A program made the position numbers and the translations under genes. A stretch of 64,000 nucleotides of DNA from Candidatus Methylomirabilia bacterium (GTDB lineage: Bacteria; Methylomirabilota; Methylomirabilia; Rokubacteriales; CSP1-6). The notes under the pieces were generated by a model. The model saw nothing but the letters and a program-made list of their open reading frames with translations, was not told where the DNA came from and made no database searches. Where the stretch lies: positions 7,387 through 71,386 of the forward strand of contig JBGQEL010000010.1 in assembly GCA_041496385.1 (NCBI GenBank), written 5' to 3'. Positions 11,154-58,210 of the stretch are shown here, one piece after another (the stretch's first letter is position 1; the number at the start of each line of letters is the position of its first letter).

Positions 11154-11188
11154 TGTGAAGCCTATCACCCGCCCCGCGATTGCGTCAA
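11154..11188 (-). promoter_or_regulatory. Sigma70-type promoter of the act operon with an overlapping imperfect palindrome
   Basis: TTGACG (11188-11183), 18 nt, TGa-TAGGCT (11164-11159); TGTGA-N6-TCACC palindrome at 11154-11169. Confidence 0.55.
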
Positions 11189-11204: not shown

Positions 11205-12482
11205 CTAGGGGCGCATCAGGGCCTCGGCGGCCGCCCGTGCGGCGAGCTCGACGTCCGCCTCCGTGTGCGCGAGCGACACGAACGCCGCCTCGAACTGCGA
11301 GGGCGCCAGGAACACGCCGCGCTCCCGCATTGCGTGAAAGTAGCGGGCGTAGCGCTTCGTGTCGCTCCGCTTCGCGGAGGCGTAGTCGGTCACCGGCCCG
11401 TCGCAGAAGAACGCCGTCAGCATCGAGCCCACCCGGTTCACGGTGAGCGGGACTCCCGCCGCCTGCGCTGCGTGCCGCAGCCCGAGCTCGAGCTGCGCAC
11501 CGCGCGCCTCGAGCGTCGCGTACGCCGACCGGTCCGCGAGGACCCGGAGGGTGGCGAGCCCCGCCGCGACGGCCAGCGGGTTCCCCGACAGCGTGCCCGC
11601 CTGGTACACGGAGCCGAGCGGTGCCACGTGGCTCATGACCGCCCGCGAGCCGCCGTAGGCGCCCACGGGCATGCCGCCACCGATGATCTTGCCGAGGCAG
11701 GTGAGATCGGGCCGGACGCCGTAGAGCTCCTGGGCGCCGCCGTACGTCACCCGGAAGCCGGTGATGACCTCGTCGAAGATCAGGAGCGCGCCGTGCTCGC
11801 GGGTGATCGCGCGGAGCCCCGCAAGAAAGCCGGGCGCCGGCGGTACCACGCCCATGTTCCCGGCCACCGGCTCGACGATGACCGCCGCGATCTCCGTCCC
11901 GCGCTCGCGGAAGACGGCGCGGACGGCCTCGAGGTCGTTGAAGGGCGCCGTCAGCGTGAGCCCGGCCAGGGGCGCCGGGACGCCGGCGCTGTCCGGGATC
12001 GAAAAGGTCGCGCCGCCCGAGCCCGCCTTCACGAGCAGGCTGTCGGCGTGGCCGTGGTAGCAGCCGTCGAATTTCAGCAGCAGCGGCCGGCCCGTGGCGC
12101 CCCGCGCGACGCGGATCGCGCTCATCGCCGCCTCGGTCCCGGAGCTCACGAGGCGGACGAGCTCGACCGACGGGTACGCGGCCGTGATCGCCTCGGCCAT
12201 CTCGACCTCGAGGGGCGTCGGCGCGCCGTAGCTCGTCCCCCGCGCCGCCGCCGCGGTGATCGCCTCCACGACGCTCTTCGGCGCGTGGCCGAGGATTAGC
12301 GGCCCCCACGATCCGAGGAAGTCGACGTACTCGCGCCCGTCGACGTCCCAGATCCGTGCGCCCGCGCCGCGGTCGACGAAGAAGGGCTCGCCGCCGACGC
12401 CGCGGAAGGCGCGCACGGGGCTGTTCACCCCTCCCGGGATCACGCTGCACGCGCGCTCCCACAGCCCCTTGGAGTCCGTCAT
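11205..12482 (-). CDS. hemL: Glutamate-1-semialdehyde 2,1-aminomutase
   Basis: [42 protein letters not shown] and [12 protein letters not shown]; start ATG 12482. Confidence 0.96.
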
Positions 12483-12958
12483 GTCCGCTCTCTCCTCCCG
12501 CCGGCCGTCTCGAGGCCGAGGTCCACCGGCAGAAAATCGCGTCGCGCGCCGTCCCAGCGGAACGCGGCGACCGTCTCCACCCGCCCGCCGGCGACCGACG
12601 TCACCACGTAAGTCGCGCCCGGATAGGCGGGCTCGCCGCCGATCAGGGCCTGACGCTTGTCGGTGTCGGAGAAGTAGGCGCCGGCGTCCACGTGGGAGTG
12701 GTAGATGACCTCCACCCCGAAGCCCTCCACTTCGAGCCGCGCGATCCGCAGCAGATCGGCGGCGTCGATGTAGTACGCCGTCCGCGCGTCGCGCGGATGC
12801 CGGAGGGGATCCCTGGCGTGGAGCTCGTTCTGGGCGTTCTTGCAGCGCACGAGGCGTCGCTCCGCACCGCGCGCGACGACCACCCCGCACGACTCGTGCG
12901 GATACTCCTCGAGCGCCTGACCACGGATCGCCTCCAGCTCCTCCGGTGTCAGGATCAC
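12479..12958 (-). CDS. JAB/MPN (M67, Mec-like) sulfur-carrier peptidase
   Basis: EYPHESCG and YHSH-x7-S-x2-D JAMM motif ([15 protein letters not shown]). Confidence 0.88.
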
Positions 12959-13236
12959 CGGCCGCCGCCCGCCAGGGCGGGAATGATCGCCAGCTCGTCG
13001 CCGTCCCGGAGCGGCGTGGAGAGCCCCTGGAGCGCCTCGATCGCCTCGTCGTTCACGTAGATGTTCACGTGGTGATGGACCTCGCCGCCCTCGTTGCGGA
13101 CGAGCCCGCGGAGCCCGGTGAACGCGCCCTCGAGCTCGTCGAGGACGCCGCCGACGGTCGTCGCGGCCGCCTGCACGCGGTCCTTGTTGTTCGTCGCCCT
13201 GCGGAACGGCGTCGGGATATAGATGGTCACGGCCAT
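12955..13236 (-). CDS. MoaD/ThiS/CysO-family ubiquitin-like sulfur carrier
   Basis: Beta-grasp pattern (IPTPFR...NIYVNDE...[16 protein letters not shown]) followed by a GR extension. Confidence 0.9.
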
Positions 13237-13255
13237 GCCTCGTCTCCTCGGACGC

Positions 13256-14173
13256 TCAGCCCTGGCTGAGGTAGCGCTCCCCGGTATCGGGCAGCACGGT
13301 CACGACGAGCTGCTCGGCCGCGAGCTCGGCGGCGACCGCGCACGCGGCGAACGCCGCGGCGCCCGCCGAGACGCCGACCAGCAGCCCCTCCTCGCGCGCC
13401 AGCCGCCGCGACCACGCGAGCGCGTCCTCGTCGCGGACCTGGATGATGCGATCGATGACGTCGCGATTCAAAACGCCTGGGACGAACGACGCGCCGATCC
13501 CCTGGATCGCGTGCGGGCGCGCCTTGCCTCCCGACAGCACGGGCGACTTCGCCGGCTCGACGGCGATCACGCGAACGCCCGGGACCTTCTCCTTCAGCAC
13601 CTCGCCCACGCCGGTCAGCGTGCCCCCCGTGCCGACGCCCGCCACGAACGCGTCGAGCCGGCCGCCGACGGCATCGAGAATCTCGAGCGCGGTGGTGCGC
13701 CGGTGGGCCTCGGGGTTCGCGGGATTCTGGAACTGCTGCGGCATGAAGTAGTCGGGGTGCTCGCGCAGGAGCTCCTGCGCCGCGTGAACGGCGCCCGTCA
13801 TCCCCTCGATCGCGGGCGTCAGGTGGAGCTCGGCGCCGAATCGCGCCAGGAGCCGCTGGCGCTCCACGCTCATGTCGTCGGGCATCGTGAGAATGAGACG
13901 GTAGCCCTTGACCGCGGCCACCATGGCCAGCCCGACGCCGGTGTTGCCGCTCGTGGGCTCGACGATGGTCGACCCGGCCTTGAGCAGGCCGCGTCCCTCC
14001 GCATCGTCCAGCATCGCGACGGCGATCCGGTCCTTGACGCTCCCGCCCGGGTTGACGGACTCGAGCTTGGCGACGACACGCGCGCCGTCCGGCCTCGGCA
14101 GGCGGTTCAGCCGGACGAGCGGCGTCCGGCCGATCAGCTCGAGCACGCTCGCGGCGATCTTCGGCCGGGTCAT
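13256..14173 (-). CDS. cysK: Cysteine synthase A (O-acetylserine sulfhydrylase)
   Basis: [16 protein letters not shown] (PLP lysine), [24 protein letters not shown] and PDTGERYLS. Confidence 0.92.
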
Positions 14174-14613
14174 ATGTGGTACATCGGCCGGGCGGCGCTC
14201 CGGCGCGCCCGCGCGCGTTCGGCGAGGTCGCCGAAGCTGACCCGGTCCACGACCTCGGAGACGGCCGTCGAGATCTCGCCCCAGAGCTCGCCCAGGTCGA
14301 CCGTCTCGCCGCCGTTTCGTCCGCCCGGCCGGCGCTGCGTCTCGATGGGCGACTGGACGCCCTCGACCGCCCGGAGAACGTCGCCCACGCTGATCTGCTC
14401 GGGCGGGCGCGTCAGGAGGTAGCCGCCGGCCGACCCGCGCTTGGAGCCGAGGATCCCGGCACGCTTGAGCGAGAGCAGCACCTGCTCGAGGTATCGCTGC
14501 GGGATCCTCTGGCGGGCGGCGATGTCCTGGATCGGCACGAGCCCGTGCCCGTCGCCGAGCGACAGATCCAGCACCGCCAGGATCGCGTACTCCCCTTTGG
14601 CCGAGATCCTCAC
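14170..14613 (-). CDS. Rrf2-family regulator, CymR-like (no Cys ligands)
   Basis: [10 protein letters not shown]...YLEQVL...SKRGSAGGY; no cysteines; C-terminus PMYHI; GTG start 14613. Confidence 0.85.
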
Positions 14614-15599
14614 CGCTCGCCCCGGCCGCTCTCCAGGAGTCGCGCCGCTTCCTTGGCGAAGTAGGTGATGACGACGTCGGCGCCGGCGCGTCGGATCGCG
14701 GTGAGCGCCTCCAGCATCGCGCGCTCTTCGTCGAGCCAGCCGAGCTGACCCGCGGCGCGGATCATCGCGTACTCGCCCGAGACCGAGTACGCGGCGAGCG
14801 GCACGCCGAACTCCGCCTTCGCCCGCGCGATCACGTCCAGGTACGGCAGCGCCGGCTTGACCATCACGATATCCGCGCCCTCGTCGAGGTCGAGCGCGAT
14901 CTCGCGCATCGCCTCCAGGCTGTTGGCCGGGTCCATCTGATACGAGCGCCGGTCGCCGAACTGCGGCGCGGACTCCGCCGCATCCCGGAACGGCCCGTAG
15001 AAGCTCGAGGCGTACTTGGCCGAGTAGGCCATGATCGGGGTGTCGCTGAAGCTGGCCTCGTCGAGCGCCTCGCGGATGGCGCCCACGCGGCCGTCCATCA
15101 TGTCCGAGGGCGCCACCATGTCGGCGCCCGCCTCGGCGTGGGAGACGGCGACGCGGGCCAGGAGCTCGATCGTCGGATCGTTCCTGACGCTGCCGCCCTC
15201 GACGACCCCGCAGTGGCCATGGCTCGTGTACTGACAGAGGCAGACGTCGGTCACGATGAGCAGGTCGGGCACGACGTCCTTCACGGCGCGCGACGCCTGC
15301 TGCACGATGCCGTCGTCGGCCCACGCCTCCGAGCCGCGCGGGTCCTTCTCGGCCGGCAGGCCGAAGAGCAGCACGGCGGGTATCCCCAGGCTCGCGACGT
15401 CCTTGACGTCCTTGACCAGCTCGTCGATCGAGAGCCGGAACTGCCCCGGCATGGAGCCGATGGGCTCGCGGACGCCCCGGCCGTGGACGACGAAGAGCGG
15501 GTAGATCAGGTCGTCGGCGGCGAGCCGCGTTTCGCGCACGAGCTTTCTCAGGAGCGACTTCTCGCGTAGACGCCTCGGACGGAACATCGCATGGGCCAT
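14610..15599 (-). CDS. hemB: Porphobilinogen synthase
   Basis: [40 protein letters not shown] and MVKPAL. Confidence 0.96.
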
Positions 15600-16450
15600 C
15601 AGTCGCCCCTCCTGCCACGGCGTGCGGGATTTTTCGGCAGCCGGGAGAAATAGTCGGCGAGCGCCCGCGCCAGCGCGGGGATCGTGTACTCGCTCGGCAT
15701 CACGTCCGTCGCGAGGCCGTACTCGGCCGCGGTCGCGGCTGTGATCGGTCCGATGGACGCGACGGCCACGCGGCCGTGCCAGGCACGGCGCTCTTCCGCA
15801 CTGAACAGCTCGGCGAAGTTGCGCGCCGTGGACGAGCTCGTGAACGTGACCGCGTCCACGGCGCCCTTGGCGAGCGCCTCGCGCACCCGCTCCACGCCGT
15901 TCTCGACGCGACGGGTCTGGTAGGCCGGCACCTCGGTCACCGTGGCGCCGAGCCGGCGAAGCTCCAGGACCAGGACGTCGCGGGTTTCCTTGGCCCGCGG
16001 CAGCAAGACCCGGTCGCCGGGCGCGAGCGTCGCCCGCAGCCGCTCGACGAGCGCCTCCGCCCGATACTCGCGCGGCACCGCCTCGACCCGCACGCCGTGC
16101 TCGGCGAGCGCCTCCGCCGTCGCCGGACCGATGGCCGCGACGCGCCGCCGCGCCAGCCCCGCCCAGCCGAGGCCGCGGGTCGAGAGCCGCTTGTCCACCA
16201 TGAGCACGCCGTTGACGCTCGTGAAGATCACCCAGGCGAAGGTGTCGAGCGCCGCGAGCGCCGCGTCGAGCGGCTCCCACGACGGCGGCGGCTCGATCGC
16301 GATCGTCGGCGCCTGGACGACCCGCGCGCCGGCGTCCTCCAGGAGCTGCACGAACCGCTGCGCCTGCGCGGCGGCGCGGGTGACGACGATCGTCCGCCCC
16401 GCCAGCGGTCCGGCTCCCGTCGCGCGCGCGGTCCGGGCCATCGAGCTCAC
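15599..16450 (-). CDS. hemD: Uroporphyrinogen-III synthase
   Basis: [35 protein letters not shown] and SIGPITA; the start could instead be ATG 16441. Confidence 0.9.
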
Positions 16451-17352
16451 ACCCTCAGCGCCGTCACGGCGGCGGCGCCGCGCTCGAGCAGCGTCTCGGC
16501 GAGCCGGCGACCGATCCGCTCGGCGTCCTCCGGGGGACCGCCGTCCTCCGCGCGGAGCACCTGCTGCCCGTCCTCACTCGCGACGAGCGCCGTCACCCGG
16601 AGGCGCCCGCCCGCGAGGGTGGCGTGGGCCGCCATGGGCGAGTTGCAGGAGGCGCCGAGCCGCCCGAGGTAGGCCCGCTCGGCGACCGCGCAGACGCGTG
16701 TCGGCGCGTCGTCGATCGCGTCGAGCAGCGCCCGCGCGCGGCGGTCCGTCTCCCGCGCCTCGACGGCGAGGATCCCCTGGCCCACCGCGGGGACGAAGAT
16801 CTCCGGGTCGAGCGGCCGGACGTGGGCGGGAACGAGACCGAGCCGGACCAGCCCCGCGGCCGCGAGCACCACGGCGTCGAAGGCGCCCTCCGCCAGCTTC
16901 CGGAGCCGCGTGTCCACGTTGCCGCGGATCGGCTCCACCGCCAGGTCGGGCCGCAGCGCCAGCACGAGCGCCCGGCGGCGCGGGCTCGAGGTGCCCACGA
17001 CCGCGCCGGCCGGCAGATCGTCGAGGCCGCCGGCCCGGCGCGTCACGAGCACGTCGCCCGGCGCCTCACGCGGCGGGAACGCCGCGAGCACGAGCCCCGC
17101 GGGCGTCGACGCCGGGAGATCTTTCAGGCTGTGCACGGCGCAGTCCAGGCGATCGGCGAGCAGCGCCTCCTCGATCTCCCGGACGAAGAGTCCCTTGCCG
17201 CCGAGCGCCGTCAGGCGGGCGTCCGCCAGCCGATCGCCCTCGGTCCGCATGCTCACGATCTCGACGACCTCGCCGCGCCCGCGGAGGCGCTCGGCGACCG
17301 CGGCCGCCTGGGCCAGCGCGAGCGCGCTCCCGCGGGTCCCCAGCCGGATCAC
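16447..17352 (-). CDS. hemC: Hydroxymethylbilane synthase
   Basis: [48 protein letters not shown] and [12 protein letters not shown]. Confidence 0.95.
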
Positions 17353-18620
17353 GACCCGCGCCTCAGGCCGAAGAGCTCGTGGACGAGCTCCAGCCACGAC
17401 CGGTGGGCGCCGGCGCGCGAGGACTCGCGGAGCTTCGAGATCGGCGCGTGCAGGATCTTGTTGACGATGGCCGAGGAGAGGGCGTCGATCGCCTGGCGCG
17501 TCTCCATAGACGCATCGGGGAGCCGCGCCAGCGTCTTCCGGACCTCGCCCGCGCGGATCTCCTCGAGCCGTTCGCGCAGCGACACGATCGTCGGAATCAC
17601 CTCGACGTCGCGCAACCGGAGGAGGAACTTCGCCGTCTCGCGCTCGACGAGCCCCTCGGCCCGCTGCGCCTCGCGCAGGCGCTCGCGGATGTTCGCATCC
17701 ACGACCTGCTTGAGGTCGTCGATGTCGTAGCGGTAGACGTCCCCCAGGCCGTCCACACCCTCCTCGACGTCGCGCGGGACCGCGATGTCGATGAAGAAGA
17801 GCGGCCGCGCGCGCCGGCCGTGCGTCACGCGCTGGACGGCCGCGCGCGTGATCACGGGTTCGGGCGCCCCGGTGGACGTGATGACGATGTCCACGCCGCC
17901 GAGCGCGGTCTCGAGCTCGTCCCACGGCACCGCGGTGCCGGACAGGGCGCGCGCCATCTCCTGCGCACGGGCCCAGGTGCGGTTGACGACGTAGACGGGG
18001 AACGCGCCCTGCTCGACGAGGTGGCGCGCCGCGAGCTCGCCCATCTTGCCCGCGCCGACCAGCAGCACGGCCTTGCCCGCGAGCCCGGCGAAGATCTTCT
18101 TCGCGAGCTCGACGGCGGCGAACGACACCGACACCGCGTGCCGGGCGATCTCGGTCTCGGTGCGCACCTTCTTCGCGACGGCGAAGGCCTGGGTGAACAG
18201 CGTGTGGAGGCTCGGGCCGATCGTCTCGCAGGCCTGCGCGAGGGCGAACGCATCCTTCACCTGCCCCAGGATCTGCGGCTCGCCGATCATCATCGAGTCG
18301 AGGCTCGCCGTGACGCGGAAGGCATGGCGGATGGCCTCCGTCTCGACGTGCGTGTAGAGCAGCGGCTCGACGAGGCCCAGGCTCACGCCGCGGTGCTGGC
18401 AGAGGTGGCGGAACGCCGCGGTCCGCGCCTCGCCCGGGACCGGCGCGACGCCGTACACCTCGACGCGGTTGCACGTGGAGAGGATGAGCGCCTCGCCGAC
18501 GGCGCCGGTGGCGGCGACGTCGCGCAGGAGCTCGCGCAGCTTGTCCTCGTCCACCGCGAGCCGCTCGCGCAGCTCGATCGGCGCGTTCTTGTGCGAGAGG
18601 CCCGCGACGAAGAGCGGCAT
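17349..18620 (-). CDS. hemA: Glutamyl-tRNA reductase
   Basis: GLSHKNAPIELRE, LSTCNRVEVY, SLDSMMIGEPQILGQVK, GAGKMG and DIAVPRD. Confidence 0.96.
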   Translation of the reverse strand: MPLFVAGLSHKNAPIELRERLAVDEDKLRELLRDVAATGAVGEALILSTCNRVEVYGVAPVPGEARTAAFRHLCQHRGVSLGLVEPLLYTHVETEAIRHAFRVTASLDSMMIGEPQILGQVKDAFALAQACETIGPSLHTLFTQAFAVAKKVRTETEIARHAVSVSFAAVELAKKIFAGLAGKAVLLVGAGKMGELAARHLVEQGAFPVYVVNRTWARAQEMARALSGTAVPWDELETALGGVDIVITSTGAPEPVITRAAVQRVTHGRRARPLFFIDIAVPRDVEEGVDGLGDVYRYDIDDLKQVVDANIRERLREAQRAEGLVERETAKFLLRLRDVEVIPTIVSLRERLEEIRAGEVRKTLARLPDASMETRQAIDALSSAIVNKILHAPISKLRESSRAGAHRSWLELVHELFGLRRGS

Positions 18621-19426
18621 CAGCCGCCGTGCCTCCCCGGGAGGAACAGCCCGGCCCCCAGCGTGAGCAGGAGCGCGGCGAACCCGGCGATCGCGCAGTA
18701 GGCGGCCCGGCGCCCACGCCAGCCCGCGGCCGCGCGGCCCGCGAGGGTCGCCGCGTAAATCGCCCAGGCGACGAACGAGAGCACCGCGAGCGGGTCGAAG
18801 GTGAAGACGCTTCCCCAGGCGCGACCGGCCCAGAGGAGGCCGAGCAGGATGCCCGTCGTCAGGAACGGGAAGCCCAGCGCGAGCGTGCGGTAGGTCAGCC
18901 GGTCGAGCGTTTCGAGCGCCGGCAACCGGTAGTACAGGTTGCCCGGGCGCTTGGCGCGGACCTGGCGCTCCTGCAGGAGATACATCACGGCGCCGGCGAA
19001 GTTGAGGACGAACGCCGCGATGCCGACGAGCGCCAGGCCGATGTGCACCCAGAGCCACGCGCCCGAGAGCGCGGGCTCGAGGCCGGGCAGCACGCGCGAG
19101 CTCGCCGACTTCACGCTGAACATGAGGACGACGGGCAGCACGAAGGCGCCGAGCACCTTGACGCCGTACTGCCGCTCGGCCCAGAGCGCCAGCAGCACGA
19201 TCACCCAGACCGCGACGGACACGGCTTCCGGCAGGGTCCCGAGCGGGGGACGGCCGAGCTCGAGGCCGCGCGCCAGTAGCGCGATCGTGTGCAGGACCCA
19301 GCCCGCGACGGTAGCGAGCGAGGCGACGCGGTGGATCCACTCCTCGCGCTGGACGAGGTACGCGAGCGACAGACCCGTCGCCACGACGTACGCGATGATC
19401 GCGAGGTTCAAGAGAGTCGGGTGCAT
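18620..19426 (-). CDS. Cytochrome c assembly (CcsA/HemX-like) membrane protein
   Basis: Multi-TM with conserved His residues (HTIAL, WVHIG) and GLLWAGRAWG...DP tryptophan-rich motif; directly upstream of hemA. Confidence 0.85.
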   Translation of the reverse strand: MHPTLLNLAIIAYVVATGLSLAYLVQREEWIHRVASLATVAGWVLHTIALLARGLELGRPPLGTLPEAVSVAVWVIVLLALWAERQYGVKVLGAFVLPVVLMFSVKSASSRVLPGLEPALSGAWLWVHIGLALVGIAAFVLNFAGAVMYLLQERQVRAKRPGNLYYRLPALETLDRLTYRTLALGFPFLTTGILLGLLWAGRAWGSVFTFDPLAVLSFVAWAIYAATLAGRAAAGWRGRRAAYCAIAGFAALLLTLGAGLFLPGRHGG

Positions 19427-19498
19427 GGCGAAGAAAAAGTTAAGTTCAGCGAGAGTTTACCACATTCCCGATGAGGATTACCCCGGCCGACGCCGGGC

Positions 19499-21948: not shown

Positions 21949-24900
21949 CTACACCACCCCCTTCTTCACGCTACAGACGAAGGCTTTCGTCTCTTGGATG
22001 TAGACGTTGGGGTCACCCACCGTGGCCGAGAGATCGTTGGTGATGTCGCCCTTGCTGCCAGGCAACCCCTCGATGCCCTTGTAGCCCCAGTGCCATGGCA
22101 CGCCGATCTGGTGGATCTTCTTGCCGTCGATGGTGAACGGCTTGAGCCGGTTCGTCACCATCGCCTTGACGTGGATCTTGCCCCGCGGCGTCGCGACCGT
22201 GACCATGTCGCCGTTCTGGAGACCGAGCTCGCCGGCCAGCTCGTGGCTGATCTCGGCGAAGTGCGACTCGAACAGCTCGGCCAGCATGGGCAGGTAGCGC
22301 GACATGACCCCGGAGAGGTGGTGCTCGGTGAGCCGGTAGGTCGTGATGACGTACGGATAGTCGGGCGAGCCCACCGGCGCGAGGTCGTTCTTCTGATCCG
22401 GCACCTGCCAGATCTTGGCCACCGGGTTGTTCTGTCGCTTCGACAGCAGATTCTTCACCGGCGACTCGATCGGCTCGTAGTGCTCGGGGAACGGCCCGTC
22501 GTTGAGGGGTCCGAAGAAGCCGCCGACGAGGTCGGTCCGCATGATGAACGGCTTGTCGCCGTTCTTGGCGTCGGGCGCCAGGAAGGCGTTGAAGTCCGGG
22601 ACGTCGAGCCCCACCCACTTCCCTTTCTTGTCGGGCTCGTTGCCCGGTGCCTCCGGATCCCACCAGATGAGCTTCTTCCTTTCGCTCCAGGGCTTGCCCT
22701 GGAGGTCCGCCGAGGCACGGTTGTAGAGGATGCGCCGATTGGCCGGCCACGCGAAGCCCCAGCCGTGGCCGAGGTAGTCCTTGTCATCGGCCGGCTTGCG
22801 CGCGTTCGCGCGGTTCACGAGCTTGCCATCCGGCCCCTCGACCGTCACGCCGGTGTAGATCCAGCAGCCGCCGGCGGTCTTGCCGTCGTCGGTCATGTGC
22901 GCGAAGGTGTTGAGCGGCTGGTCTTTCTTGTAGACGACCTTGCCGTCCTTGTCTTTGATCTCCTCGGTCGCGAAGCCGTTGACCTCCTTCAGCACGAGCT
23001 GCATGTCGGGTTCTTTCGGGTTGTCGCCGTACTTGAAGCCGGCGGCGAGGAAGCCCTTGTCCCGCTCCTTCTTCGAGCCCGCGTAGAGCTTCTGGAGCCG
23101 CTGGGCCAGGCTGCAGAAGAACTCGGCGTCGGACGTCACGTCGCCGGGCGGCGTCACGGCCTTCTCGTGCCACTGGATCAGCCGCATCGTGTTCGTCAGC
23201 GATCCGTCCTTCTCCGCGGCCGGCGCCGCCGGCAGGAAGAAGATCTCGGTCTTGACGTCCTTTGGATTGACACCCGGGGCCTTCCAGATTTCGGCCGTCT
23301 CCGTGATGAAGATGTCCTTCACCACGAGCCAGTCGAGCCGCTGCATCGCGGCGCGGGCGAGCTTCGCGTTCGGGCCGCCGACCGCCGGGTTTTGCCCGTC
23401 GGCCAGGAAGCCCTTGATGACGCCGTTGTACATGTCCACGAACATGTGCTGGTGGCTGTAGGCGTCGGCCAAGGCGCGCTTCGGCAGCCACTGATAGCCG
23501 AACTCGTTGTCCTTGGTGGCGGCGTCGCCGTAGAAGGCCTTCAGCAGGCTCACGAAGAACTTCGGCTTGTTCGTCCAGAAGCCGCCCTTGGGCGTCTCCT
23601 TCTCGAGATACGTCTTGAGGTCCGGATGGGCGTCACGCAGCGGCTGGGCCATGTACCCCGGCAGCTCGTGGTAGAGCAGCTCGAGGTCCGTGGCGCCCTG
23701 CACGTTGGCGTGGCCGCGGAGCGCGACGACGCCGCCGCCCGGGCGGCCGACGTTGCCGAGCAGGAGCTGGAGCATGCAGAGGGCGCGGATATTCTCCACG
23801 CCGTTCGTGTGCTGCGTGAGGTTGAGGGCGTAAGTGATCGACCCGGTCTTCTCCGGACCGGAGTTGCTGCAGTAGAGCTGCGCGACCTCCTCGAACTTGG
23901 CCTTCGGGATGCCGCAGATACGCTCCACCATCTCGGGCGTGTAGCGGCTGTACTGGCGGCGCAGGAGCTGGAAGACGCTGTTCGGGTCCCGCAGCGTCAG
24001 GTCACGCTTGGGATTCCCCTCGCCGTCGAGCTGATACTTCCAGGACCCCTTGTCGTAGGTCCGCTTGGCCTCGTCGAATCCGGTGAAGAGCCCACCCAGG
24101 TCGGTGGCGGTCTGGAATGCCGGGTCGATCAGGAACGAGGCGTTCGTGTAGGGGACGACATAGTCCCTGAAGTAGAGATTCTTCTGGATCGCGTAGTTGA
24201 TGAGCCCGCCGAAGAACGCGATGTTCGTCCCGGAGCGGATCGGGACGTGGATGTCGGCGGCGGCGCTCGTGCGCGTGAACCGCGGATCGACGTGGATGAA
24301 CTTGGCGCCGCGCTCCTTGGCCTTCATCACCCACTGGAAGCCGACGGGGTGGTTCTCGGCCATGTTGGACGTGGCCATGATCACATCCGAGTGCTGCATG
24401 TCGATGAGGTTCGTCGTCATCGCCCCGCGACCGAACGTGGTCCCCAAAGCTGGGACCGTGGCGGAGTGTCAGACTCGGGCCTGGTGCTCGTGGTAGACGA
24501 TGCCGAGCGTCCGGTTCAGCTTCGACAGGAGGTAACACTCCTCGTTGTCGATGCACGCCGAGCCGAGCGAGGCGATCGCCTCCAGGCGGTTCACGGTGAC
24601 CAGGTTGCCGTCCTTGTCCTTCTCCTTCTCGATGAAGTACTTCTCGCGCGCGTCGTAGTAGCGCTTGGCCACCTGCTCGTACATCCACTCCAGCGGCTTC
24701 TCTTCCCACGCGTCCGAGCCCGGCGCCCGGTAGAGAGCCTTCGTCGGCCGGAGCGGGTTGTTGGAGAGCTGGATCGTCGCGGCACCCTTCGGGCAGAGGC
24801 GTCCTTGCGTGTGCGGCGTGTCGGGATCGCCCTCGATGTCGATGATCCGATCGCCCTTGGCGTAGATGAGCTGTCCGCAGCCGACCGCGCAGTACGGACA

Positions 24901-25047
24901 GACACCGTGGAACGCTTTGGCCTCTTTGATCTTGAGCGAGGTGGCCGCGGCTTCCACCGGGGCGAGATCGACTCCCCTGCCGGTGACCGCGACGCCCGCC
25001 GCCGTCGCGCTTCCGAACTTTAGGAAATCACGTCGCGAAAGAGCCAT
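21949..25047 (-). CDS. fdnG: Selenocysteine-containing formate dehydrogenase alpha subunit (Tat-exported, Mo/W-bisPGD)
   Basis: Tat signal MALSRRDFLK, CPYCAVGC...LCPKG, and HQARV-U-HSATVPALGTTFGRGAM read through the in-frame TGA at 24471-24469; ALRGHANVQG; SD GAGGAGG upstream of ATG 25047. The ORF track splits it in two. Confidence 0.95.
24439..24457 (-). promoter_or_regulatory. Bacterial SECIS hairpin
   Basis: GGUCCC-AGCUUUG-GGGACC begins exactly 11 nt after the UGA, the spacing established for E. coli fdhF/fdnG SECIS elements. Confidence 0.88.
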
Positions 25048-25397: not shown

Positions 25398-25426
25398 ATG
25401 GTAGTGTCGTCAGACCACGCTGTCAA
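25398..25426 (-). promoter_or_regulatory. Sigma70 promoter of the fdh operon
   Basis: TTGACA (25426-25421), 17 nt, TACCAT (25403-25398). Confidence 0.75.
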
Positions 25427-25778: not shown

Positions 25779-26552
25779 TCAGACCTTCGGCGCCGCCGCT
25801 GTCTGGGTCAGACGCAGGCCGTCGCCGGCGTAGAGATTGAGGCTGTCGGGCCCGACGTACCCGCAGACCGTGAGGTTGAGCTGTTCGGCCAGGGCCACGG
25901 CCATCTCGGTGGGCGAGGTGCGTGAGGCCACCACCGGCACCCCCATGCGGGCCGCCTTCAGGAGCATCTCGGAGGAGATCCGGCCGGTCGAGAGCAGGAT
26001 GCGGTCCTCCGTCGGGATCCCGCGCAGCAGCGCCTCGCCCTTCACCTTGTCCACCGCGTTGTGACGACCCACGTCCTCGGCGACGACGAGCAGCCGCTCG
26101 CCGTCGCTCAGCGCGGCCCCGTGGATGCCCCGCGACTCACGGTAGTGGACGGCCGCCGCGAACAGTTCCTTCATCCGCGCCGAGACCGTCTCGGGATCGA
26201 CGCGGAGAGACGACGAGAGGCGCGGGAAGAGCCGGTGGTCGATGCGAAACGTGATCCCGCCGCCGCAGCCCGAGGTCAGGATGCGCTCGGTCGGAAGCGT
26301 GACGGGATGCGTGAGCGTCACGTCGGCGCGGCCGTCGACCGGGGACACGTCGACCCGCGCGATCTCGTCGAGGCCGCCGATCACCTTCTCCATCCAGAGG
26401 TAACCGACGACGAGCGCCTCGAGCTTCAGGGGTGAGCAGAGCAGCGTGAGGAACTTCTCGCCGTTGACGTACACGGTCAGCGGCTGCTCGCGGACGACCT
26501 CGCCGACGACCTCGTCGGTGCGACCGTGGCGGATCCGGAGATACGTGCGCAT
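25779..26552 (-). CDS. fdhD: Formate dehydrogenase sulfurtransferase FdhD
   Basis: EQPLTVYVNG, TSGCGGG, HGAAL, EDVGRHNAVDK and TGRISSEMLLKA. Confidence 0.93.
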   Translation of the reverse strand: MRTYLRIRHGRTDEVVGEVVREQPLTVYVNGEKFLTLLCSPLKLEALVVGYLWMEKVIGGLDEIARVDVSPVDGRADVTLTHPVTLPTERILTSGCGGGITFRIDHRLFPRLSSSLRVDPETVSARMKELFAAAVHYRESRGIHGAALSDGERLLVVAEDVGRHNAVDKVKGEALLRGIPTEDRILLSTGRISSEMLLKAARMGVPVVASRTSPTEMAVALAEQLNLTVCGYVGPDSLNLYAGDGLRLTQTAAAPKV

Positions 26553-48215: not shown

Positions 48216-48847
48216 GACGCTCCTCCTTGGGTCCGGTGCGCGTCGATCGTCCACTGGACCGCGTCGGCCGCCCGGTGGTCGTTCGGCCGCGCGCGGCGGC
48301 GCAGCTCGTCCACGATCTTCGCGCGCGCGTCCGGCGTGCGGTTCTGCGCGAGCTTGAATTTCGGACGACGGGCCCGGATGTCGAGCCGGACCGCCGCGAT
48401 GTGGGCGATCGCGCCCCGATAGAGCGGGTCGTCCGGGGTCACCGGCCGGAAGCCCCCCTCCGGCTGGTACCGGCCGAGCAGCTTCGTCTGCTGCGCGGCC
48501 AGCGCCCCCGCGTCGTCGGACACCGTGGCCTGGCAGTCGAAGATGACCGTCCGGTGATACGCCGTCGCCATGACCGCGTTCTCCGGATGCACCCAGTACG
48601 AGGGGATAACCGCGAGCACTTCGTCGACCTCGAAGAGGCAGCGCGGCCGCGCCCGGAGGTCTTCGATCTGCTCGTCCTTGCGGACCAGGTGAATCTCGAA
48701 TGCGTCACCGTCGTACACGAAGGGGTAGAGCCCGATGTGGGGCGTCCCCCCGGCGTCGGCGGTGACGAGACGCCCCATCTCCTGGGAGCGGACGAACCGG
48801 TCCACCTCGTCCCGCGGCACGTCCGCGTAGTAGTCGTGGAAGATCAC
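48212..48847 (-). CDS. FMN-binding split-barrel protein, PaiB-like
   Basis: PHIGLYPF, IPSYW...ATAY and KFKLAQNR pattern; GTG start overlaps the pdxT stop. Confidence 0.7.
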   Translation of the reverse strand: MIFHDYYADVPRDEVDRFVRSQEMGRLVTADAGGTPHIGLYPFVYDGDAFEIHLVRKDEQIEDLRARPRCLFEVDEVLAVIPSYWVHPENAVMATAYHRTVIFDCQATVSDDAGALAAQQTKLLGRYQPEGGFRPVTPDDPLYRGAIAHIAAVRLDIRARRPKFKLAQNRTPDARAKIVDELRRRARPNDHRAADAVQWTIDAHRTQGGAS

Positions 48848-49449
48848 GCGCGCGCTCCTTTGGCCGCTCGCCGGACCATGTCGCGAAAGTAGCGGTGCAC
48901 GGCCTGCTCGCCCGTCACCTCCGGGTGGAAGGTCGCCACGAGCACCCCGCCCTGCCGGGCCATGACGGGATCGTCGCCCTGACGCGCGAGCACGTCGACG
49001 CCCGCGCCGACCCGCCGGATGCGCGGGGCGCGGATGAACATCATGTCGATGGGTGTCGGCCGCCCGTCGAGCATCGCCGTCCCCCGGCTCTCGAACGACT
49101 CCCGCTGGCGCCCGTAGGCGTTTCGCTCGACGGTGACGTCGATCAGGCCGAGAGAGAACTGCCGGGGGTTCTCGACCTCCCGCGCGAGCACGATGAGACC
49201 CGCGCAGGTGCCGAAGATGGGTCTGCCCTCGGCGTGGAACTTCTCGATCGCGGGGACGAATCCCCACTCGTCCATGAGCTTGAGCAGCGTCGTCGACTCG
49301 CCACCCGGAATGAGCAGGCCGTCCACGTCGGCCAGCTCGGCCGGCTTGCGGACCTCGACCGCCGCGACGCCGCACGTCGCGAGCGCCGCGGCGTGGAGGC
49401 CGAAATCGCCCTGAAGGGCGAGCACGCCGATTTTCACGTTTTCGGTCAT
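48844..49449 (-). CDS. pdxT: PLP synthase glutaminase subunit
   Basis: GVLALQGDF, PGGEST, GTCAG, RNAYGRQ, FIRAP and FHPE. Confidence 0.95.
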   Translation of the reverse strand: MTENVKIGVLALQGDFGLHAAALATCGVAAVEVRKPAELADVDGLLIPGGESTTLLKLMDEWGFVPAIEKFHAEGRPIFGTCAGLIVLAREVENPRQFSLGLIDVTVERNAYGRQRESFESRGTAMLDGRPTPIDMMFIRAPRIRRVGAGVDVLARQGDDPVMARQGGVLVATFHPEVTGEQAVHRYFRDMVRRAAKGARA

Positions 49450-49505
49450 TTCACCGCTCACCTCGGACGGCGGGGCCGCAGCCCCGCGACGTCCTGCGGC
49501 TCGCA

Positions 49506-50402
49506 CTACCAGCCCCGGGTCTGGAGCAGGTCCTTCTCCTCGAGCTTCGAGGTCTCGATCCCGGGCATCGCCTCGCCCAGCTCCTCCGAGACGCGCGCGA
49601 GGACGTCGGCATCCTTGAAGTGGGTCGTCGCCTGGACGATCGCCTTGGCGCGCTTGGCCGGATCGCTCGACTTGAAGATGCCCGAACCGACGAACACCGA
49701 CTCGGCGCCGAGCTGCATCATGAGCGCGGCGTCGGCCGGCGTCGCGATGCCACCCGCCGAGAAGTTCGGTACCGGGAGCTTGCCGGTCTTCGCCACCCAG
49801 CGCACGAGCTCGTAGGGCGCGCCGAGGGTCTTCGCCTCGGTCATGAGCTCCTCGGGCGAGAGCAGCGTCAGCCGCCGCATCCCGGACACGAGCGCCCGCA
49901 TGTGGCGCACGGCCTCGACGATGTTGCCCGAGCCGGCCTCGCCCTTCGTGCGGATCATCGCCGCGCCCTCGCCCACACGGCGGAGCGCCTCGCCGAGGTC
50001 GCGCGCGCCGCACACGAACGGCACCCGGAAGGCGAACTTGTCGATGTGAAAATGCTCATCCGCGGGCGTCAGCACCTCCGACTCGTCGATGAAGTCCACG
50101 CCGAGGGCCTCGAGGATCTGCGCCTCGACGAAGTGGCCGATGCGCGCCTTGGCCATCACGGGGATCGTCACCGTCTTCTGGATCTCCCGGATCTTCCTCA
50201 CCGGCGACATCCGCGCGACGCCGCCCTCCTTGCGGATGTCCGCGGGCACACGCTCGAGCGCCATCACGGACACCGCGCCCGCGTCCTCGGCGATCTTCGC
50301 CTGCTCGGCGTTGGTGACGTCCATGATGACGCCGCCCTTCAGCATCTCCGCGAGGCCGATGTGCTTCTTGTCCGCGATGCGCAGCCCGTTCACGTCCATC
50401 AT
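49506..50402 (-). CDS. pdxS: PLP synthase lyase subunit
   Basis: [37 protein letters not shown] and [11 protein letters not shown]. Confidence 0.97.
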
Positions 50403-50446
50403 GTGGATCTCCTTTGTCTTGGCCGGTCGGCCAGTCGATTCCTACC

Positions 50447-51976
50447 CTAGACCAGCGGAACCGTCGCGCGTGCCGCCCGCTCGCGCTCCGGGACCCGTCC
50501 GCGCGCCGCCCGGATCGTCTCCGCCAAACGCTTGACCCCCTCGTCGATCCGCGCCGCCGCCACCGACGAGAACGAGAGCCGCAGGGTCCTCTCGCCGCCC
50601 CCGTCCACGAAGAACGCGGCGCCCGGCGTGAACGCGACGCCGCGCTCGCCCGCGGCGGGCAGCAGCGCGCCGGCGTCGAGCCCGGGCGGCAGCGTCACGA
50701 GGAGCGAGAACCCGCCCTGCGGCTCGGTCCACGTGACCTCGGCCGGCATCCGTCGACGGAGCGCCGCCAGCAGGAGCGCGCGTCGCCGCGCGTACTCGCG
50801 GGCGACCCGCGTCACGTGACGGTCCAGGAGCTTGCGCTCGCAGAACCGGTAGACCGCGGCCTGGAGCAGCGCGCTCGTGTGCAGGTCGGCGAGCTGCTTG
50901 GCCGCGAGGAGCCGGTCGAGGACCGGCCGCGGGCCGACGAGCCAGCCGAGCCGCAGCCCGGGAAAGAGGATCTTCGAGAACGTCCCGATGTAGATCACGA
51001 CCCCGTCCCGGTCGAGCGCCTTGAGCGGGACCGCCGGCCGCTCGCCGTAGTAGAGGCTGCCGTCGAAGCCGTCTTCGACCACCGGCACCTGATGGCGCGC
51101 GGCGACGTCCAGGAGGCGCCGCGCCGTCTCGAGCGTGAGGGAGAGTCCGGTCGGGTTGTGCGCGCTGGGCTGGCAGTAGAAGAGCTTCGGCGCGTGACGC
51201 TCGAGGAGCCGCTCGAAGGCGTCCACCCGCGGGCCCGACGTGTCCCAGGGCACCGCCAGCAGCTGGGCGCCGAAGGAACGGAAGACCTGCAGCGCGCGGG
51301 GGTAGGTCGGATCCTCGATCGCGACGGCATCTCCCGGGTCGAGCAGCGTGCGGGCGATCAGGTCGAAGCCCTGCTGGGAGCCGTTGACGATGATGATGTC
51401 GTCGGGCCGCGCCTCGAGCCCGAATCTCAGGAGATAGGTCGAGAGATACTGCCGGAGCGGCGGATAACCGCCGGCGGGGTAGTACTGCAGGAGCGCGGCG
51501 CCGTCCTCGCGGATCACGTCGTTCAGCACGCGGCGGAAGGCGTCGGTCGGGAAGAGCCCGCTGTCGGGCATGCCACCCGCGAACGAGATGACCGCGGGAT
51601 TGGCTGCCGCCGTGCTCGCGAGGGCCCGCGTCCGGTCCTCCTCGGCGACCACGATCTGCGCGCTCCGCGAGAACAGGCCCGGCCAGTTGAGCGGCACCTG
51701 GGACGGGACCTGAGCCTCGGGCGCCGCCTGGGTCCCGGGCGACTCGGCGACGAAGGTCCCCTGGCCCACGTGGGCCCGGGCCCAGCCCGCGGCCACGAGC
51801 TCCTCGTAGGCCTGCGCGACGGTGGCGCGGTTGACGCCGAGCTGCTGCGCGAGGTCGCGCGTGGCCGGCAGCTTCATCCCGGGCGTCAGGAGCCGCTCGC
51901 GGATGAGGCGCTCCAGGTACGCCTGGATCTGGCGCGGCAGCGCGACGGGCTTCTCGCGGTCGAGCGGGATGTGCAC
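50447..51976 (-). CDS. MocR/GabR-family PLP-dependent regulator (PdxR-like)
   Basis: wHTH (KLPATRDLAQQLGVNRATV) plus aminotransferase-like domain (GTFSKILFPGLRLG); SD AAGGAG before GTG 51976; adjacent to pdxST. Confidence 0.9.
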   Translation of the reverse strand: MHIPLDREKPVALPRQIQAYLERLIRERLLTPGMKLPATRDLAQQLGVNRATVAQAYEELVAAGWARAHVGQGTFVAESPGTQAAPEAQVPSQVPLNWPGLFSRSAQIVVAEEDRTRALASTAAANPAVISFAGGMPDSGLFPTDAFRRVLNDVIREDGAALLQYYPAGGYPPLRQYLSTYLLRFGLEARPDDIIIVNGSQQGFDLIARTLLDPGDAVAIEDPTYPRALQVFRSFGAQLLAVPWDTSGPRVDAFERLLERHAPKLFYCQPSAHNPTGLSLTLETARRLLDVAARHQVPVVEDGFDGSLYYGERPAVPLKALDRDGVVIYIGTFSKILFPGLRLGWLVGPRPVLDRLLAAKQLADLHTSALLQAAVYRFCERKLLDRHVTRVAREYARRRALLLAALRRRMPAEVTWTEPQGGFSLLVTLPPGLDAGALLPAAGERGVAFTPGAAFFVDGGGERTLRLSFSSVAAARIDEGVKRLAETIRAARGRVPERERAARATVPLV

Positions 51977-52088
51977 CGTGGTCTCCTTACAGGGCCATTC
52001 TCCGAGTATTCCTGGCGACGTCAAGGGCCAATTGGCCTGCTCGGTACCAGGCCACGCTATAATCCTCCGCACCGGGAGGAGGCCCCTC

Positions 52089-52268
52089 ATGTCCCTGGGC
52101 GAGGCGCCGATCAGGCAGGCCGTGAAGTGGATCGAGGACCGGCTGCGCGACGACCCGGCGGCCGATCGCCTCAGGCTCGTCGACGAGGCGTCGCGGCAAT
52201 TCGACCTGACGCCGCTCGATGAGGACTTCCTCCTCCGGCACCTGGCCGAGCGCCGCAAGGACGGATGA
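52089..52268 (+). CDS. Small hypothetical protein (59 aa)
   Basis: TATAAT at 52058-52063, SD GGAGGAGG, ATG 52089; stop overlaps the next start. Confidence 0.8.
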   Translation: MSLGEAPIRQAVKWIEDRLRDDPAADRLRLVDEASRQFDLTPLDEDFLLRHLAERRKDG

Positions 52269-53041
52269 GCGAGGCGCAGACCCGCCGCGTCCAGGCGCAA
52301 TTCGGCGCGACCCCGCAGGCCTACGTCGCGAGCGTCGGTCACGCCGGCGGCGCCGATCTCGAAACGCTGCTGGCCTGGGGACGCGCCCGCCGCCCGGCGC
52401 GGGTCCTCGACGTCGCCACCGGGGGCGGTCACACGGCCCTCGCCTTCGCCGGACTCCCGGCGCGCGTCGTCGCGTTCGACCTGACGGAGGCGATGCTCCG
52501 CGCCGCGCGCGACTTCGTCGGCGGCCGCGGCGCGACGGGCGTGAGCTTCGTCGCGGGCGACGTCGAGGCGCTCCCCCTCCGCGAGGGCGCCTTCGACCTC
52601 GTGACCTGCCGGATCGCCGCCCACCACTTCGCCGACGTCGCCGCCGCCGTCCGCCAGATCCAGCGCGTGCTGCGCCCCGGTGGCTCCTTCCTCGTGCAGG
52701 ACATCCTCGGTCACGACGATCCCGAGGCGAGCGCCTTCATCACCGAGGTCGAGCGACGCCGCGACCCCTCCCATGTCCGCGCCTACCGCGCGACGGAGTG
52801 GAAGGCCTTCCTGAAGGCCGCCGGCATGACGGTGATGGCCGAGGCGATCGTGAGCAAGGTCCGTCCGTGGGGCGACTGGACGGCCCGGATGGGGATGAGC
52901 GTCGAGGCGCGGCGTGAGCTCGAGGCCTTCGTGCGCGGCGCGCCCGAGCCCTGCCGCCGCGCCTTCGACGTGAGACTCGCGGGCGACGCGGTCGAATCGT
53001 TCGCCGACCGCATGATCCTGCTCCGCGCCGACCGCGACTAG
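52265..53041 (+). CDS. Class I SAM-dependent methyltransferase
   Basis: VLDVATGGG, GDVEALP, FDLVTCRIAAHHF and RVLRPGG. Confidence 0.9.
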   Translation: MSEAQTRRVQAQFGATPQAYVASVGHAGGADLETLLAWGRARRPARVLDVATGGGHTALAFAGLPARVVAFDLTEAMLRAARDFVGGRGATGVSFVAGDVEALPLREGAFDLVTCRIAAHHFADVAAAVRQIQRVLRPGGSFLVQDILGHDDPEASAFITEVERRRDPSHVRAYRATEWKAFLKAAGMTVMAEAIVSKVRPWGDWTARMGMSVEARRELEAFVRGAPEPCRRAFDVRLAGDAVESFADRMILLRADRD

Positions 53042-57359: not shown

Positions 57360-58210
57360 AAGGCGCGATCCCCGGCAAGGTCGTCGGCCTCGAGGTCGGC
57401 GCCGTCAGCCAGACGCTGGACGCGCGCTGGCTCATGGCCTACGCGGCGGGGCTGGGCGAGACCGACCCGCGCTACTACGACACGGAGGCGCCCGGCGGGC
57501 CGCTGGCCCACCCGATGTTCGCCGCGTGCTACGAGTGGCCCGTGGCGCTCTCGCTGCGCGCGAAGACGATCAAGCCCGAGCTGCTGCCCCTCGGCGTCCA
57601 GACGAGCCACCACCTCGTCATCCACCGGCAGCCCGCGGCGAGTGATCGCCTGCTCACCCGCGGGCAGGTCGTCACGGTCAAGCCGGTCCGCGCGGGCACC
57701 CTCGTCGTCACGCGCTATTCCAGCGTGGACCGCAACGGCCGGCCCGTCACGACGACCGACTATGGCTCGATCTTCCGCCGCGTGACCACGGAGGGCGAGG
57801 CGAGCGCCGCCGTGCCGCCGCTGCCACGTCCGGAGCCGCCGGCGGGCGACGAGGTGCGCTGGATCGCGACGGTCGCCGTCGGCCTGCAGGCCGCCCACGT
57901 CTACTCCGAGTGCGCGCGCATCTGGAACCCGATCCACACCGACATCGCCGTCGCCCGCGCCGCGGGGCTTCCCGGGCTGATCCTGCACGGCACCGCGACC
58001 ATCGCGCTCGCGGTCTCGCAGGTGATCCAGCGCGACCTGGCCGGCGACCCGACGCGGGTCGCCGAGCTCACCGCGAGGCTCGCGGGCATGGTCTCGATGC
58101 CGTCGAGCCTCGTCGTTCGCGGCCGCGCGCGCGCCGGGAACCGGGTCGCCTTCGACGTCATGAACGAGCGTGGCGAGCCGGTGCTGAGCGACGGCGTCAT
58201 CCGCGCATGA
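57356..58210 (+). CDS. Tandem hot-dog MaoC-family dehydratase
   Basis: N-terminal MaoC-like domain (YAAGLGE...AHPMF) and C-terminal WNPIHTD...GLILHG motif. Confidence 0.82.
   Translation: MKGAIPGKVVGLEVGAVSQTLDARWLMAYAAGLGETDPRYYDTEAPGGPLAHPMFAACYEWPVALSLRAKTIKPELLPLGVQTSHHLVIHRQPAASDRLLTRGQVVTVKPVRAGTLVVTRYSSVDRNGRPVTTTDYGSIFRRVTTEGEASAAVPPLPRPEPPAGDEVRWIATVAVGLQAAHVYSECARIWNPIHTDIAVARAAGLPGLILHGTATIALAVSQVIQRDLAGDPTRVAELTARLAGMVSMPSSLVVRGRARAGNRVAFDVMNERGEPVLSDGVIRA

Follow-up and report, generated by a model that had tools for sequence, protein, structure and literature searches.

A conserved Rrf2-CysK-sulfur carrier-JAMM peptidase cassette in the heme-trunk operon of Rokubacteria/Methylomirabilota, a probable module for cysteine synthesis and sensing

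A stretch of 64,000 nucleotides (nt) from contig JBGQEL010000010.1 of a Candidatus Methylomirabilia bacterium (hereafter the window) was analysed for a cassette of four sulfur-related genes that lie among genes of tetrapyrrole synthesis. On the minus strand, which carries nearly all genes of the window (G+C about 70%; approximately 60 genes, called by codon-position GC), hemB, an Rrf2-family regulator gene (rrf2), cysK, a gene for a CysO-like sulfur carrier (cysO), a gene for a JAMM peptidase (jab) and hemL follow one another consecutively in the 5′ to 3′ direction (read from 14720 to 12380; Table 1). The identities that a previous, sequence-only reading had assigned to the four cassette genes were confirmed by Pfam, with E-values of 3.5e-32 for Rrf2, 5.6e-79 for PALP, 2.1e-14 for ThiS (PF02597) and 6.9e-15 for Prok-JAB (PF14464).

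The junctions from hemB to hemL which that reading had described were likewise all borne out on the minus strand. GTGA is shared by the TGA stop of hemB and the GTG start of rrf2 (14613-14610) and by the stop of the carrier gene and the GTG start of jab (12958-12955), ATGA is shared by the stop of rrf2 and the ATG of cysK (14173-14170) and by the stop of jab and the ATG of hemL (12482-12479), and the stop of cysK at 13256 is followed by a 19-nt spacer and then by the carrier ATG at 13236. Such tight coupling, by overlaps of 1 or 4 nt, runs from ccsA to hemL (TGATG at ccsA/hemA and hemD/hemB; GTGA at hemA/hemC and hemC/hemD), and the cassette is not special in that respect: the ten genes ccsA-hemA-hemC-hemD-hemB-rrf2-cysK-cysO-jab-hemL, from 19426 to 11205, form one coupled string with that single spacer. 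The string is flanked, also as previously described, by a formate dehydrogenase (FDH)-like set upstream (molybdopterin enzyme, Fer4, NrfD and FdhE) and by alternative complex III (ACIII; actA-actB-actC-actD) downstream.

A synteny survey, which the earlier reading had proposed, was run with one genome per species. In the scan 552 loci contained a relative, and the 80 top-ranking ones were retained as species representatives; five metagenome contigs (L001-L005) brought the set to 85 loci, and gene order was determined by tblastn. The genes rrf2, cysK, cysO and jab were contiguous in 77 of the 80 species loci, and the complete order of hemB, the four genes and hemL was found in 61. Loci without that full order comprise eight variants, loci truncated by a contig end, and a small number in which a match was missed or more widely spaced. 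Chance co-localisation of the cassette with hem genes was rejected because the layout is conserved across species loci. Wherever rrf2 and cysK are both present (84 loci), rrf2 is the gene directly before cysK, mostly overlapping it or within about 100 nt (at most 327 nt).

On this basis we consider it fairly likely, though well short of certain, that the four genes constitute one cysteine-synthesis and cysteine-sensing module, which is fixed in the uroporphyrinogen-III (‘heme trunk') operon of Rokubacteria/Methylomirabilota and works as proposed below; the findings that weigh against this reading are given with the component that each concerns. As for the hem linkage, hemB and rrf2 are set apart by 5-6.4 kb of unrelated genes in eight of the 85 loci, and in these variants no hemL follows jab, the cassette running directly into actA/actB. 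The four genes nevertheless remain together in all eight. Because the cassette stays intact without hem linkage, the four genes are a conserved unit, and embedding among hem genes is the majority state, not a universal one. In L078, the only variant that was scanned for them, the inserted genes encode a zinc alcohol dehydrogenase and an ABC peptide-type transporter.

The distribution of the arrangement is largely that of one phylum. Close Rrf2 homologs are labelled Candidatus Rokubacteria, Methylomirabilota or NC10, and contigs that encode homologs at 70-78% identity share a single gene order: molybdopterin enzyme, Fer4, NrfD, FdhE, ccsA, hemA, hemC, hemD, hemB, Rrf2, PALP, ThiS, JAB, hemL and then actA-D of ACIII. 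The sequencing runs that contain the window are sediment metagenomes (DNA). All of the 80 best genome loci belong to Rokubacteria/Methylomirabilota except three metagenome-assembled genomes labelled otherwise (L036 and L082 as Candidatus Binatia, L079 as Verrucomicrobiia), in which this Rrf2 recurs (65-73% identity) and the cassette genes are arranged alike; these reflect either mis-binning or mislabelling, or an arrangement that reaches outside the phylum.

The most informative feature of the cassette, not noticed in the sequence-only reading, is that the Gly-Gly of the carrier is never terminal. Among the 81 loci in which the carrier C-terminus could be read, the conserved ...PALAGG ends the protein in none: Gly-Gly is followed by one residue in 20 loci, by two in 26 (GR in the window), by three in seven and by 5-37 in 19, and nine loci encode an in-frame CysO-JAB fusion, seven of them without HemL (L017, L029, L030, L036, L043, L073 and L080) and two extending into HemL (L042 and L050). 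Furthermore, a single JAMM-HemL open reading frame (ORF) of about 585 aa is present in twelve species (JAB-HemL loci L011, L012, L014, L020, L022, L023, L039, L046, L069 and L007), with no N in the fusion regions; a functional rationale for joining JAB to HemL is not obvious. Where the genes are separate they are close, with a 4-nt cysO/jab overlap in 50 of 82 loci. As encoded, the carrier has no free C-terminal Gly-Gly for adenylation and thiocarboxylation and needs prior processing. Because adenylation needs an exposed Gly-Gly, the variable extensions and the carrier-peptidase fusions suggest that the JAMM peptidase matures the carrier by cutting after Gly-Gly. The same JAMM chemistry frees cysteine from the CysO-Cys adduct in Mycobacterium tuberculosis, and a carrier that is always a pro-form or fused to its peptidase argues for a JAMM protein that serves both as maturase and as product-releasing hydrolase.

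That the carrier and the peptidase resemble the mycobacterial CysO/Mec pair, as the sequence-only reading had held, agrees with the closest solved structures. The best solved match of the carrier is M. tuberculosis CysO (3dwg_C, 4.6e-17), aligned over its full length (residues 1-91 versus 1-93) and including the N-terminal MxVTxxIPT motif, in a chain that itself stops at GG. In the peptidase the JAMM motif is intact (HxHx7Sx2D, preceded by EEYPHESCG), and the protein matches the solved structure 2kcq (6.2e-9). In two of the metagenome contigs, L004 and L005, the JAB gene (9655-10224 in L004) carries an insertion, HSHADAQERGGGTGAYFSETD, within the JAMM motif that widens the spacing from the His pair to Ser-x-x-Asp.

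Processing of this kind has precedents. QbsE of Pseudomonas fluorescens is a pro-carrier with residues after Gly-Gly that are trimmed by the JAMM peptidase QbsD. The MoaX protein of M. tuberculosis, a MoaD-MoaE fusion, is cleaved at Gly-Gly (PMC4326299). The carrier described here resembles both in being extended or fused and in needing a cut after Gly-Gly, and resembles QbsE/QbsD in the adjacency of the JAMM gene. Unlike both, it is associated with cysteine synthesis and not with the making of a siderophore or of molybdopterin, and its extension of 1-37 aa is highly variable and includes fusion to the peptidase itself.

Pro-form processing and fusions also recall ubiquitin precursors, and the carrier could be a ubiquitin-like modifier (SAMP/TtuB-like), with the JAMM protein as a processing or deconjugating enzyme and CysK, HemL or other proteins as targets. 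The carrier just passed the SAMP1 model (NF041918, 60.5 bits against a cut-off of 60), the peptidase has a weak match to the desampylase model (43 bits against 130), and the JAB-HemL fusions of twelve species point the same way. However, the carrier barely clears the SAMP1 cut-off, SAMP1 itself resembles MoaD, and SAMP1 is an archaeal modifier conjugated through UbaA, whereas the organism here is bacterial. E1 and E2 genes are missing nearby, and what is conserved beside the carrier is a cysteine synthase, the partner also known from the biochemically solved pathway of M. tuberculosis; a modifier role is therefore judged highly improbable, although the carrier may conceivably have two roles.

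The synthase passed the cysK equivalog model (TIGR01139, 436.6 bits against a cut-off of 350.95) and failed both cysM models (305.6 versus 394.2 and 278.8 versus 413). Together with the motifs PHAIQGIG, SVKDR (with the lysine that binds pyridoxal phosphate (PLP)) and TSGNTG (loop), and with Geobacillus CysK and M. tuberculosis CysK1 as best solved matches, these scores upheld the earlier assignment to CysK and mark the enzyme, on sequence grounds, as CysK-type and not CysM-type. The characterised thiocarboxylate-using synthase, CysM of M. tuberculosis, is CysM-type and specific for O-phosphoserine, and the use of a carrier thiocarboxylate by a CysK-type enzyme would be an extension by homology. 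Moreover, neither a ThiF/MoeB/rhodanese E1 nor cysE was found in the 64-kb window, where 41 of the approximately 60 genes, including the four of the cassette, were searched against Pfam and most others (hem and ACIII) were covered via annotated orthologs.

These features leave room for a different division of labour, in which CysK uses free sulfide only and the carrier and JAMM peptidase serve another sulfur transfer, either MoaD-like for the neighbouring FDH/ACIII-type molybdoenzymes or for another thio-cofactor. Molybdopterin enzymes, MoeA and FdhD are encoded within the window, the carrier comes near the moaD_arch cut-off (44.7 bits against 49.5), and it is the CysM type, not the CysK type, that is known to use CysO. 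On the other hand, the carrier scored 21.6 bits on the moaD equivalog (TIGR01682; cut-off 66.15), and no MoaE gene is adjacent in the window or in any locus; on that score and that absence a MoaD role was rejected as the main reading. The full-length match to CysO, the position of the carrier gene directly after cysK in 77 of 80 species loci, and the recurrence of operons that combine ThiS, JAB and cysteine synthase in many phyla also speak for cysteine synthesis, and service to another pathway appears improbable.

The Rrf2 protein lacks cysteine and ends in PMYHI, as had been read from the sequence, and 113 of 120 close homologs are likewise without Cys, the ligand positions being substituted in an alignment with Cys-bearing relatives. 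All 85 loci encode a C-terminus of the form [MIV]-Y-[HQ]-I, preceded by residues that vary. In an AlphaFold2 (AF2) model (pLDDT, the confidence measure, 82.8) the protein has the usual Rrf2 fold, with the would-be cluster loop (87-98) disordered and the last six residues outside the final helix. In Bacillus subtilis, CymR carries a C-terminal Ile motif, as do CysE and the CdiA toxin, and binds CysK; formation of the CymR-CysK complex responds to O-acetylserine, and in Clostridium acetobutylicum a CymR candidate is encoded directly upstream of cysK. The window protein thus resembles CymR of the B. subtilis/Staphylococcus aureus CymR-CysK systems in having no cluster ligands and in its aromatic-x-Ile tail, and the gene pair resembles CAC2236-CAC2235 of C. 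acetobutylicum in its order. It differs from CymR in its phylum, in failing the CymR equivalog, and in being translationally coupled in mid-operon instead of having its own promoter. Of the previous identification as CymR, the missing cysteines and the tail stood, and the specific assignment did not; the protein looks CymR-like, and binding to CysK is predicted.

Several findings fit this prediction less well. On NCBIfam the protein passed the Rrf2 superfamily model only, failing CymR (NF047409, 95.7 bits against a cut-off of 195) and, with a nearly equal score, IscR (TIGR02010, 90.2 against 207.6). Its best solved match is the IscR of Thermincola potens (4cic; tail MYYI), and its nearest relatives outside Rokubacteria have four Cys. 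In an exhaustive HMMER search of Rrf2 cluster representatives, the top 150 of which were assessed for tail and Cys, the aromatic-x-Ile tail was found in 96, and 43 of these 96 have at least three Cys. Because the tail is also common in Fe-S-type Rrf2 proteins, it is not specific to CymR, and alone it is no proof of CysK binding.

The protein could accordingly act on the hem/respiratory operon as a general repressor, apo-IscR-like or of another type, with an inherited tail of other or no role and a merely operonic adjacency to cysK; the model scores, the IscR structure, the Cys-rich tail-bearing proteins, the four-Cys outgroups and the conserved element of the hem promoter described below all speak for this. 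Such a repressor is less easily reconciled with a tail that is invariant in 85 of 85 loci beside varying residues, with an rrf2 gene that stays upstream of cysK in 84 of 84 loci even where hem linkage is lost, and with C-terminal Ile being the known CysK docking signal. In addition, a more distant cluster-less, tail-bearing Rrf2 clade heads an operon for TauE/SafE, an adenosine phosphosulfate (APS)-reductase-like flavoprotein, ferredoxin and a sulfite reductase-TusA fusion. A metagenome scan with the outgroup alignment found that this clade does not adjoin cysK; its sulfur-assimilation operon is in favour of a sulfur role for Rrf2. A general repressor is thus considered unlikely, though it deserves to be kept in view. 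In low-GC loci of this outgroup clade (L086-L098), a canonical TTGACA-N17-TATAAT lies about 20-60 nt before the Rrf2 start (for example, 5940-6000 in L093) and is followed by a strictly conserved leader, AAWYTTGATCGGAAAGGTAGGAATTATG.

Turning to transcription of the string, 30 of 49 species loci have a conserved element, ATCGGRAWTGTGGTAAACT, before ccsA at a distance of about 45 nt (within 120 nt), and the element is absent elsewhere in the loci; no other intergenic site of the window is of the ATCGGRAW type. The element is likely the start of the transcription unit that includes the cassette; it looks like an extended -10 promoter whose spacer is unusually well conserved, and is a candidate operator half-site. 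Its ATCGGRAA core, which recurs in rrf2 leaders of the outgroup clade (TTGATCGGAAAGGTAGGAATT), may correspond to the right half-site of the CymR box of B. subtilis. In the variant loci, rrf2 is preceded by a sigma-70-like promoter of its own, and the leaders hold TTGACCGGATA, sharing TTGAYCGGAWA with the outgroup leader and not the ATCGGRAA core. Autoregulation of the hem promoter by Rrf2 is accordingly treated as a lead only.

A consensus scan from 19.4 to 11.2 kb gave no internal promoter, none before rrf2, and no convincing terminator. In the 124-nt gap before actA a promoter-like pattern match (Table 1) suggests that ACIII may have its own promoter. The best sigma-70-like match between 10400 and 26000, TTGACA-17-TACCAT at 25398-25426 (-), precedes a small ORF and the FDH genes.

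The overlaps, together with a gene order conserved across loci, are strong grounds for the co-expression of the cassette with the hem genes that had been claimed, and RNA of relatives adds weak support. The organism of the window was found in DNA runs only and not in RNA runs; soil metatranscriptomes contain only sequence of relatives (about 4% of words). Metatranscriptome contigs of these relatives cross the hemB/rrf2 and rrf2/cysK junctions, and one contig of 1.8 kb covers hemL, jab and cysO. The contigs are short, come from related organisms and could include DNA carry-over, and they are suggestive of co-transcription.

In the mechanism that we propose for a cysteine-synthesis and cysteine-sensing module, the ccsA-to-hemL string would be transcribed from the conserved ccsA promoter and translated by coupling. 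The carrier would be made with residues past Gly-Gly, as the extended or fused carriers in 81 of 81 loci suggest, and the JAMM cut would expose Gly-Gly, after which a MoeZ-like E1-type enzyme encoded elsewhere would adenylate and thiocarboxylate it. By homology, CysK would build PLP-aminoacrylate from O-acetylserine, or possibly O-phosphoserine, and use the carrier thiocarboxylate, free sulfide or both as sulfur donor; the same JAMM peptidase would then hydrolyse the carrier-cysteine adduct, as in M. tuberculosis. The flexible ...MYHI tail of the cluster-less, CymR-like Rrf2 would dock in the CysK active site in the manner of C-terminal-Ile partners, and the Rrf2-CysK complex would repress its target promoters when acceptor substrate is scarce.

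Why such a module should sit among hem genes might be explained by the siroheme need of sulfite reduction, by the cysteine that c-type cytochromes and Fe-S proteins require, or simply by housekeeping co-expression. The earlier suggestion that the cassette adjusts the supply of cysteine, Fe-S or molybdopterin sulfur to that of heme for the ACIII and FDH complexes is speculation. A bolder version, which we regard as a long shot, has CysK-held Rrf2 repressing the ccsA-hemA promoter, such that the tetrapyrrole trunk would be gated by cysteine or acceptor status. The ...MYHI tail and the ...GG-thiocarboxylate tail would then compete for the CysK active site, the repressor would sense charged carrier plus O-acetylserine, and the JAMM-HemL and CysO-JAMM-HemL fusions would represent physical coupling.

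One of the closest known systems is mec+-cysO-cysM of M. tuberculosis (Rv1334-Rv1336), which also has a CysO-type carrier with an adjoining JAMM peptidase and PLP cysteine synthase, and whose E1 is likewise unlinked. It differs in its CysM-type synthase, in a CysO that ends at GG, and in gene order, and it has neither the Rrf2 regulator nor the hem-operon location. In actinomycetes a dedicated, adjacent transcription factor, AosR, has been described (PMC8280819). The same three-protein core of ThiS/MoaD carrier, JAB and cysteine synthase, with or without an E1-rhodanese protein, defines operon types 4c and 4d of many phyla (Iyer, Burroughs and Aravind 2006; PMC1779556); here, by contrast, E1-rhodanese is missing from the cluster, an Rrf2 gene is added and the whole is embedded in hem genes. 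The surrounding operon shares six gene families, leading to uroporphyrinogen III, with the Bacillus-type hemAXCDBL operon, including a CcsA-family, HemX-like membrane protein, and is unlike it in that the HemX-like gene comes first, four cysteine genes stand between hemB and hemL, and the operon continues towards ACIII.

The ‘hybrid' system of the sequence-only reading holds in that CymR-like, CysK and CysO/JAMM parts are combined, and has to be qualified in that it recombines modules already known. The CysO pathway, the CymR-CysK complex, pro-carrier processing and operons of ThiS, JAB and cysteine synthase are known. What is new is that these modules are combined with a CysK-type synthase in one coupled cassette, that this cassette has become fixed within the heme-trunk operon across an entire uncultured phylum, and that the carrier is obligatorily made as a pro-form, the peptidase and HemL also occurring as natural fusion partners. 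A carrier-protein cysteine route best known from mycobacteria thus appears here with a CysK-type synthase, hard-wired to a CymR-like regulator outside Firmicutes. Rokubacteria/Methylomirabilota, though abundant members of soil and sediment communities, have not been cultured, and operon structure is among the few ways into their physiology; current knowledge is not overturned by the cassette, and the arrangement makes cysteine control of tetrapyrrole synthesis a directly testable question.

Table 1. Features of the ccsA-to-hemL string and its surroundings (window positions, in order of transcription)
Feature	Position	Strand	Product or description	Remarks
Promoter element	19454..19472	-	ATCGGGAATGTGGTAAACT, putative extended -10 TGGTAAACT	About 45 nt before ccsA
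ccsA	18620..19426	-	ccsA/HemX-like cytochrome c assembly family membrane protein	First gene of the string; L001 ortholog carries PF01578
hemA	17349..18620	-	Glutamyl-tRNA reductase	Ortholog with Pfam GlutR_N/Shikimate_DH/GlutR_dimer
hemC	16447..17352	-	Porphobilinogen deaminase	Annotated ortholog
hemD	15599..16450	-	Uroporphyrinogen-III synthase	Annotated ortholog
hemB	14610..15599	-	Porphobilinogen synthase, 329 aa	Start overlaps hemD stop by 1 nt
rrf2	14170..14613	-	Rrf2-family regulator, cluster-less, 147 aa	0 Cys; tail ARPMYHI; CymR-like features
cysK	13256..14173	-	CysK-type O-acetylserine sulfhydrylase, 305 aa	
Spacer	13237..13255	-	19 nt, with ribosome-binding site GGAGACGAGG	Sole spacer of the string
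cysO	12955..13236	-	CysO-like ThiS/MoaD sulfur-carrier pro-protein, 93 aa	Gly-Gly + 2 residues at the end
jab	12479..12958	-	JAMM/Mec-like metallopeptidase (JAB), 159 aa	Motif E...HxHx7Sx2D
hemL	11205..12482	-	Glutamate-1-semialdehyde aminomutase	Last gene of the string
Promoter-like sequence	11159..11188	-	TTGACG-N18-TAGGCT	Pattern match; 124-nt gap before actA

Several other features of the window were recorded. The FDH alpha gene (approximately 21949-24957, -) is interrupted by an in-frame TGA at 24469-24471 in the context ARV-TGA-HSATV, which is the usual selenocysteine position of FdhA-type enzymes; the gene probably encodes one selenocysteine-containing protein, not two. FdhD, the FDH molybdenum-cofactor sulfurtransferase, is encoded at 25779-26552 (-), just upstream of the small ORF and the FDH genes. 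At 48844-52774 (-), the PLP-synthase genes for PdxT (SNO) and PdxS (SOR/SNZ) lie downstream of a gene on the same strand for a GntR-aminotransferase fusion regulator of PdxR/MocR type. A RACo-type corrinoid activase (Fer2 + RACo), a MaoC/FAS1-dehydratase-like protein and a URO-D-family protein are grouped at 55476-59229 (+), and the last of these is more likely a corrinoid methyltransferase than hemE. Finally, a large CHAT-domain (caspase-like) protein is encoded at 61915-63999 (-) and continues past the window end.

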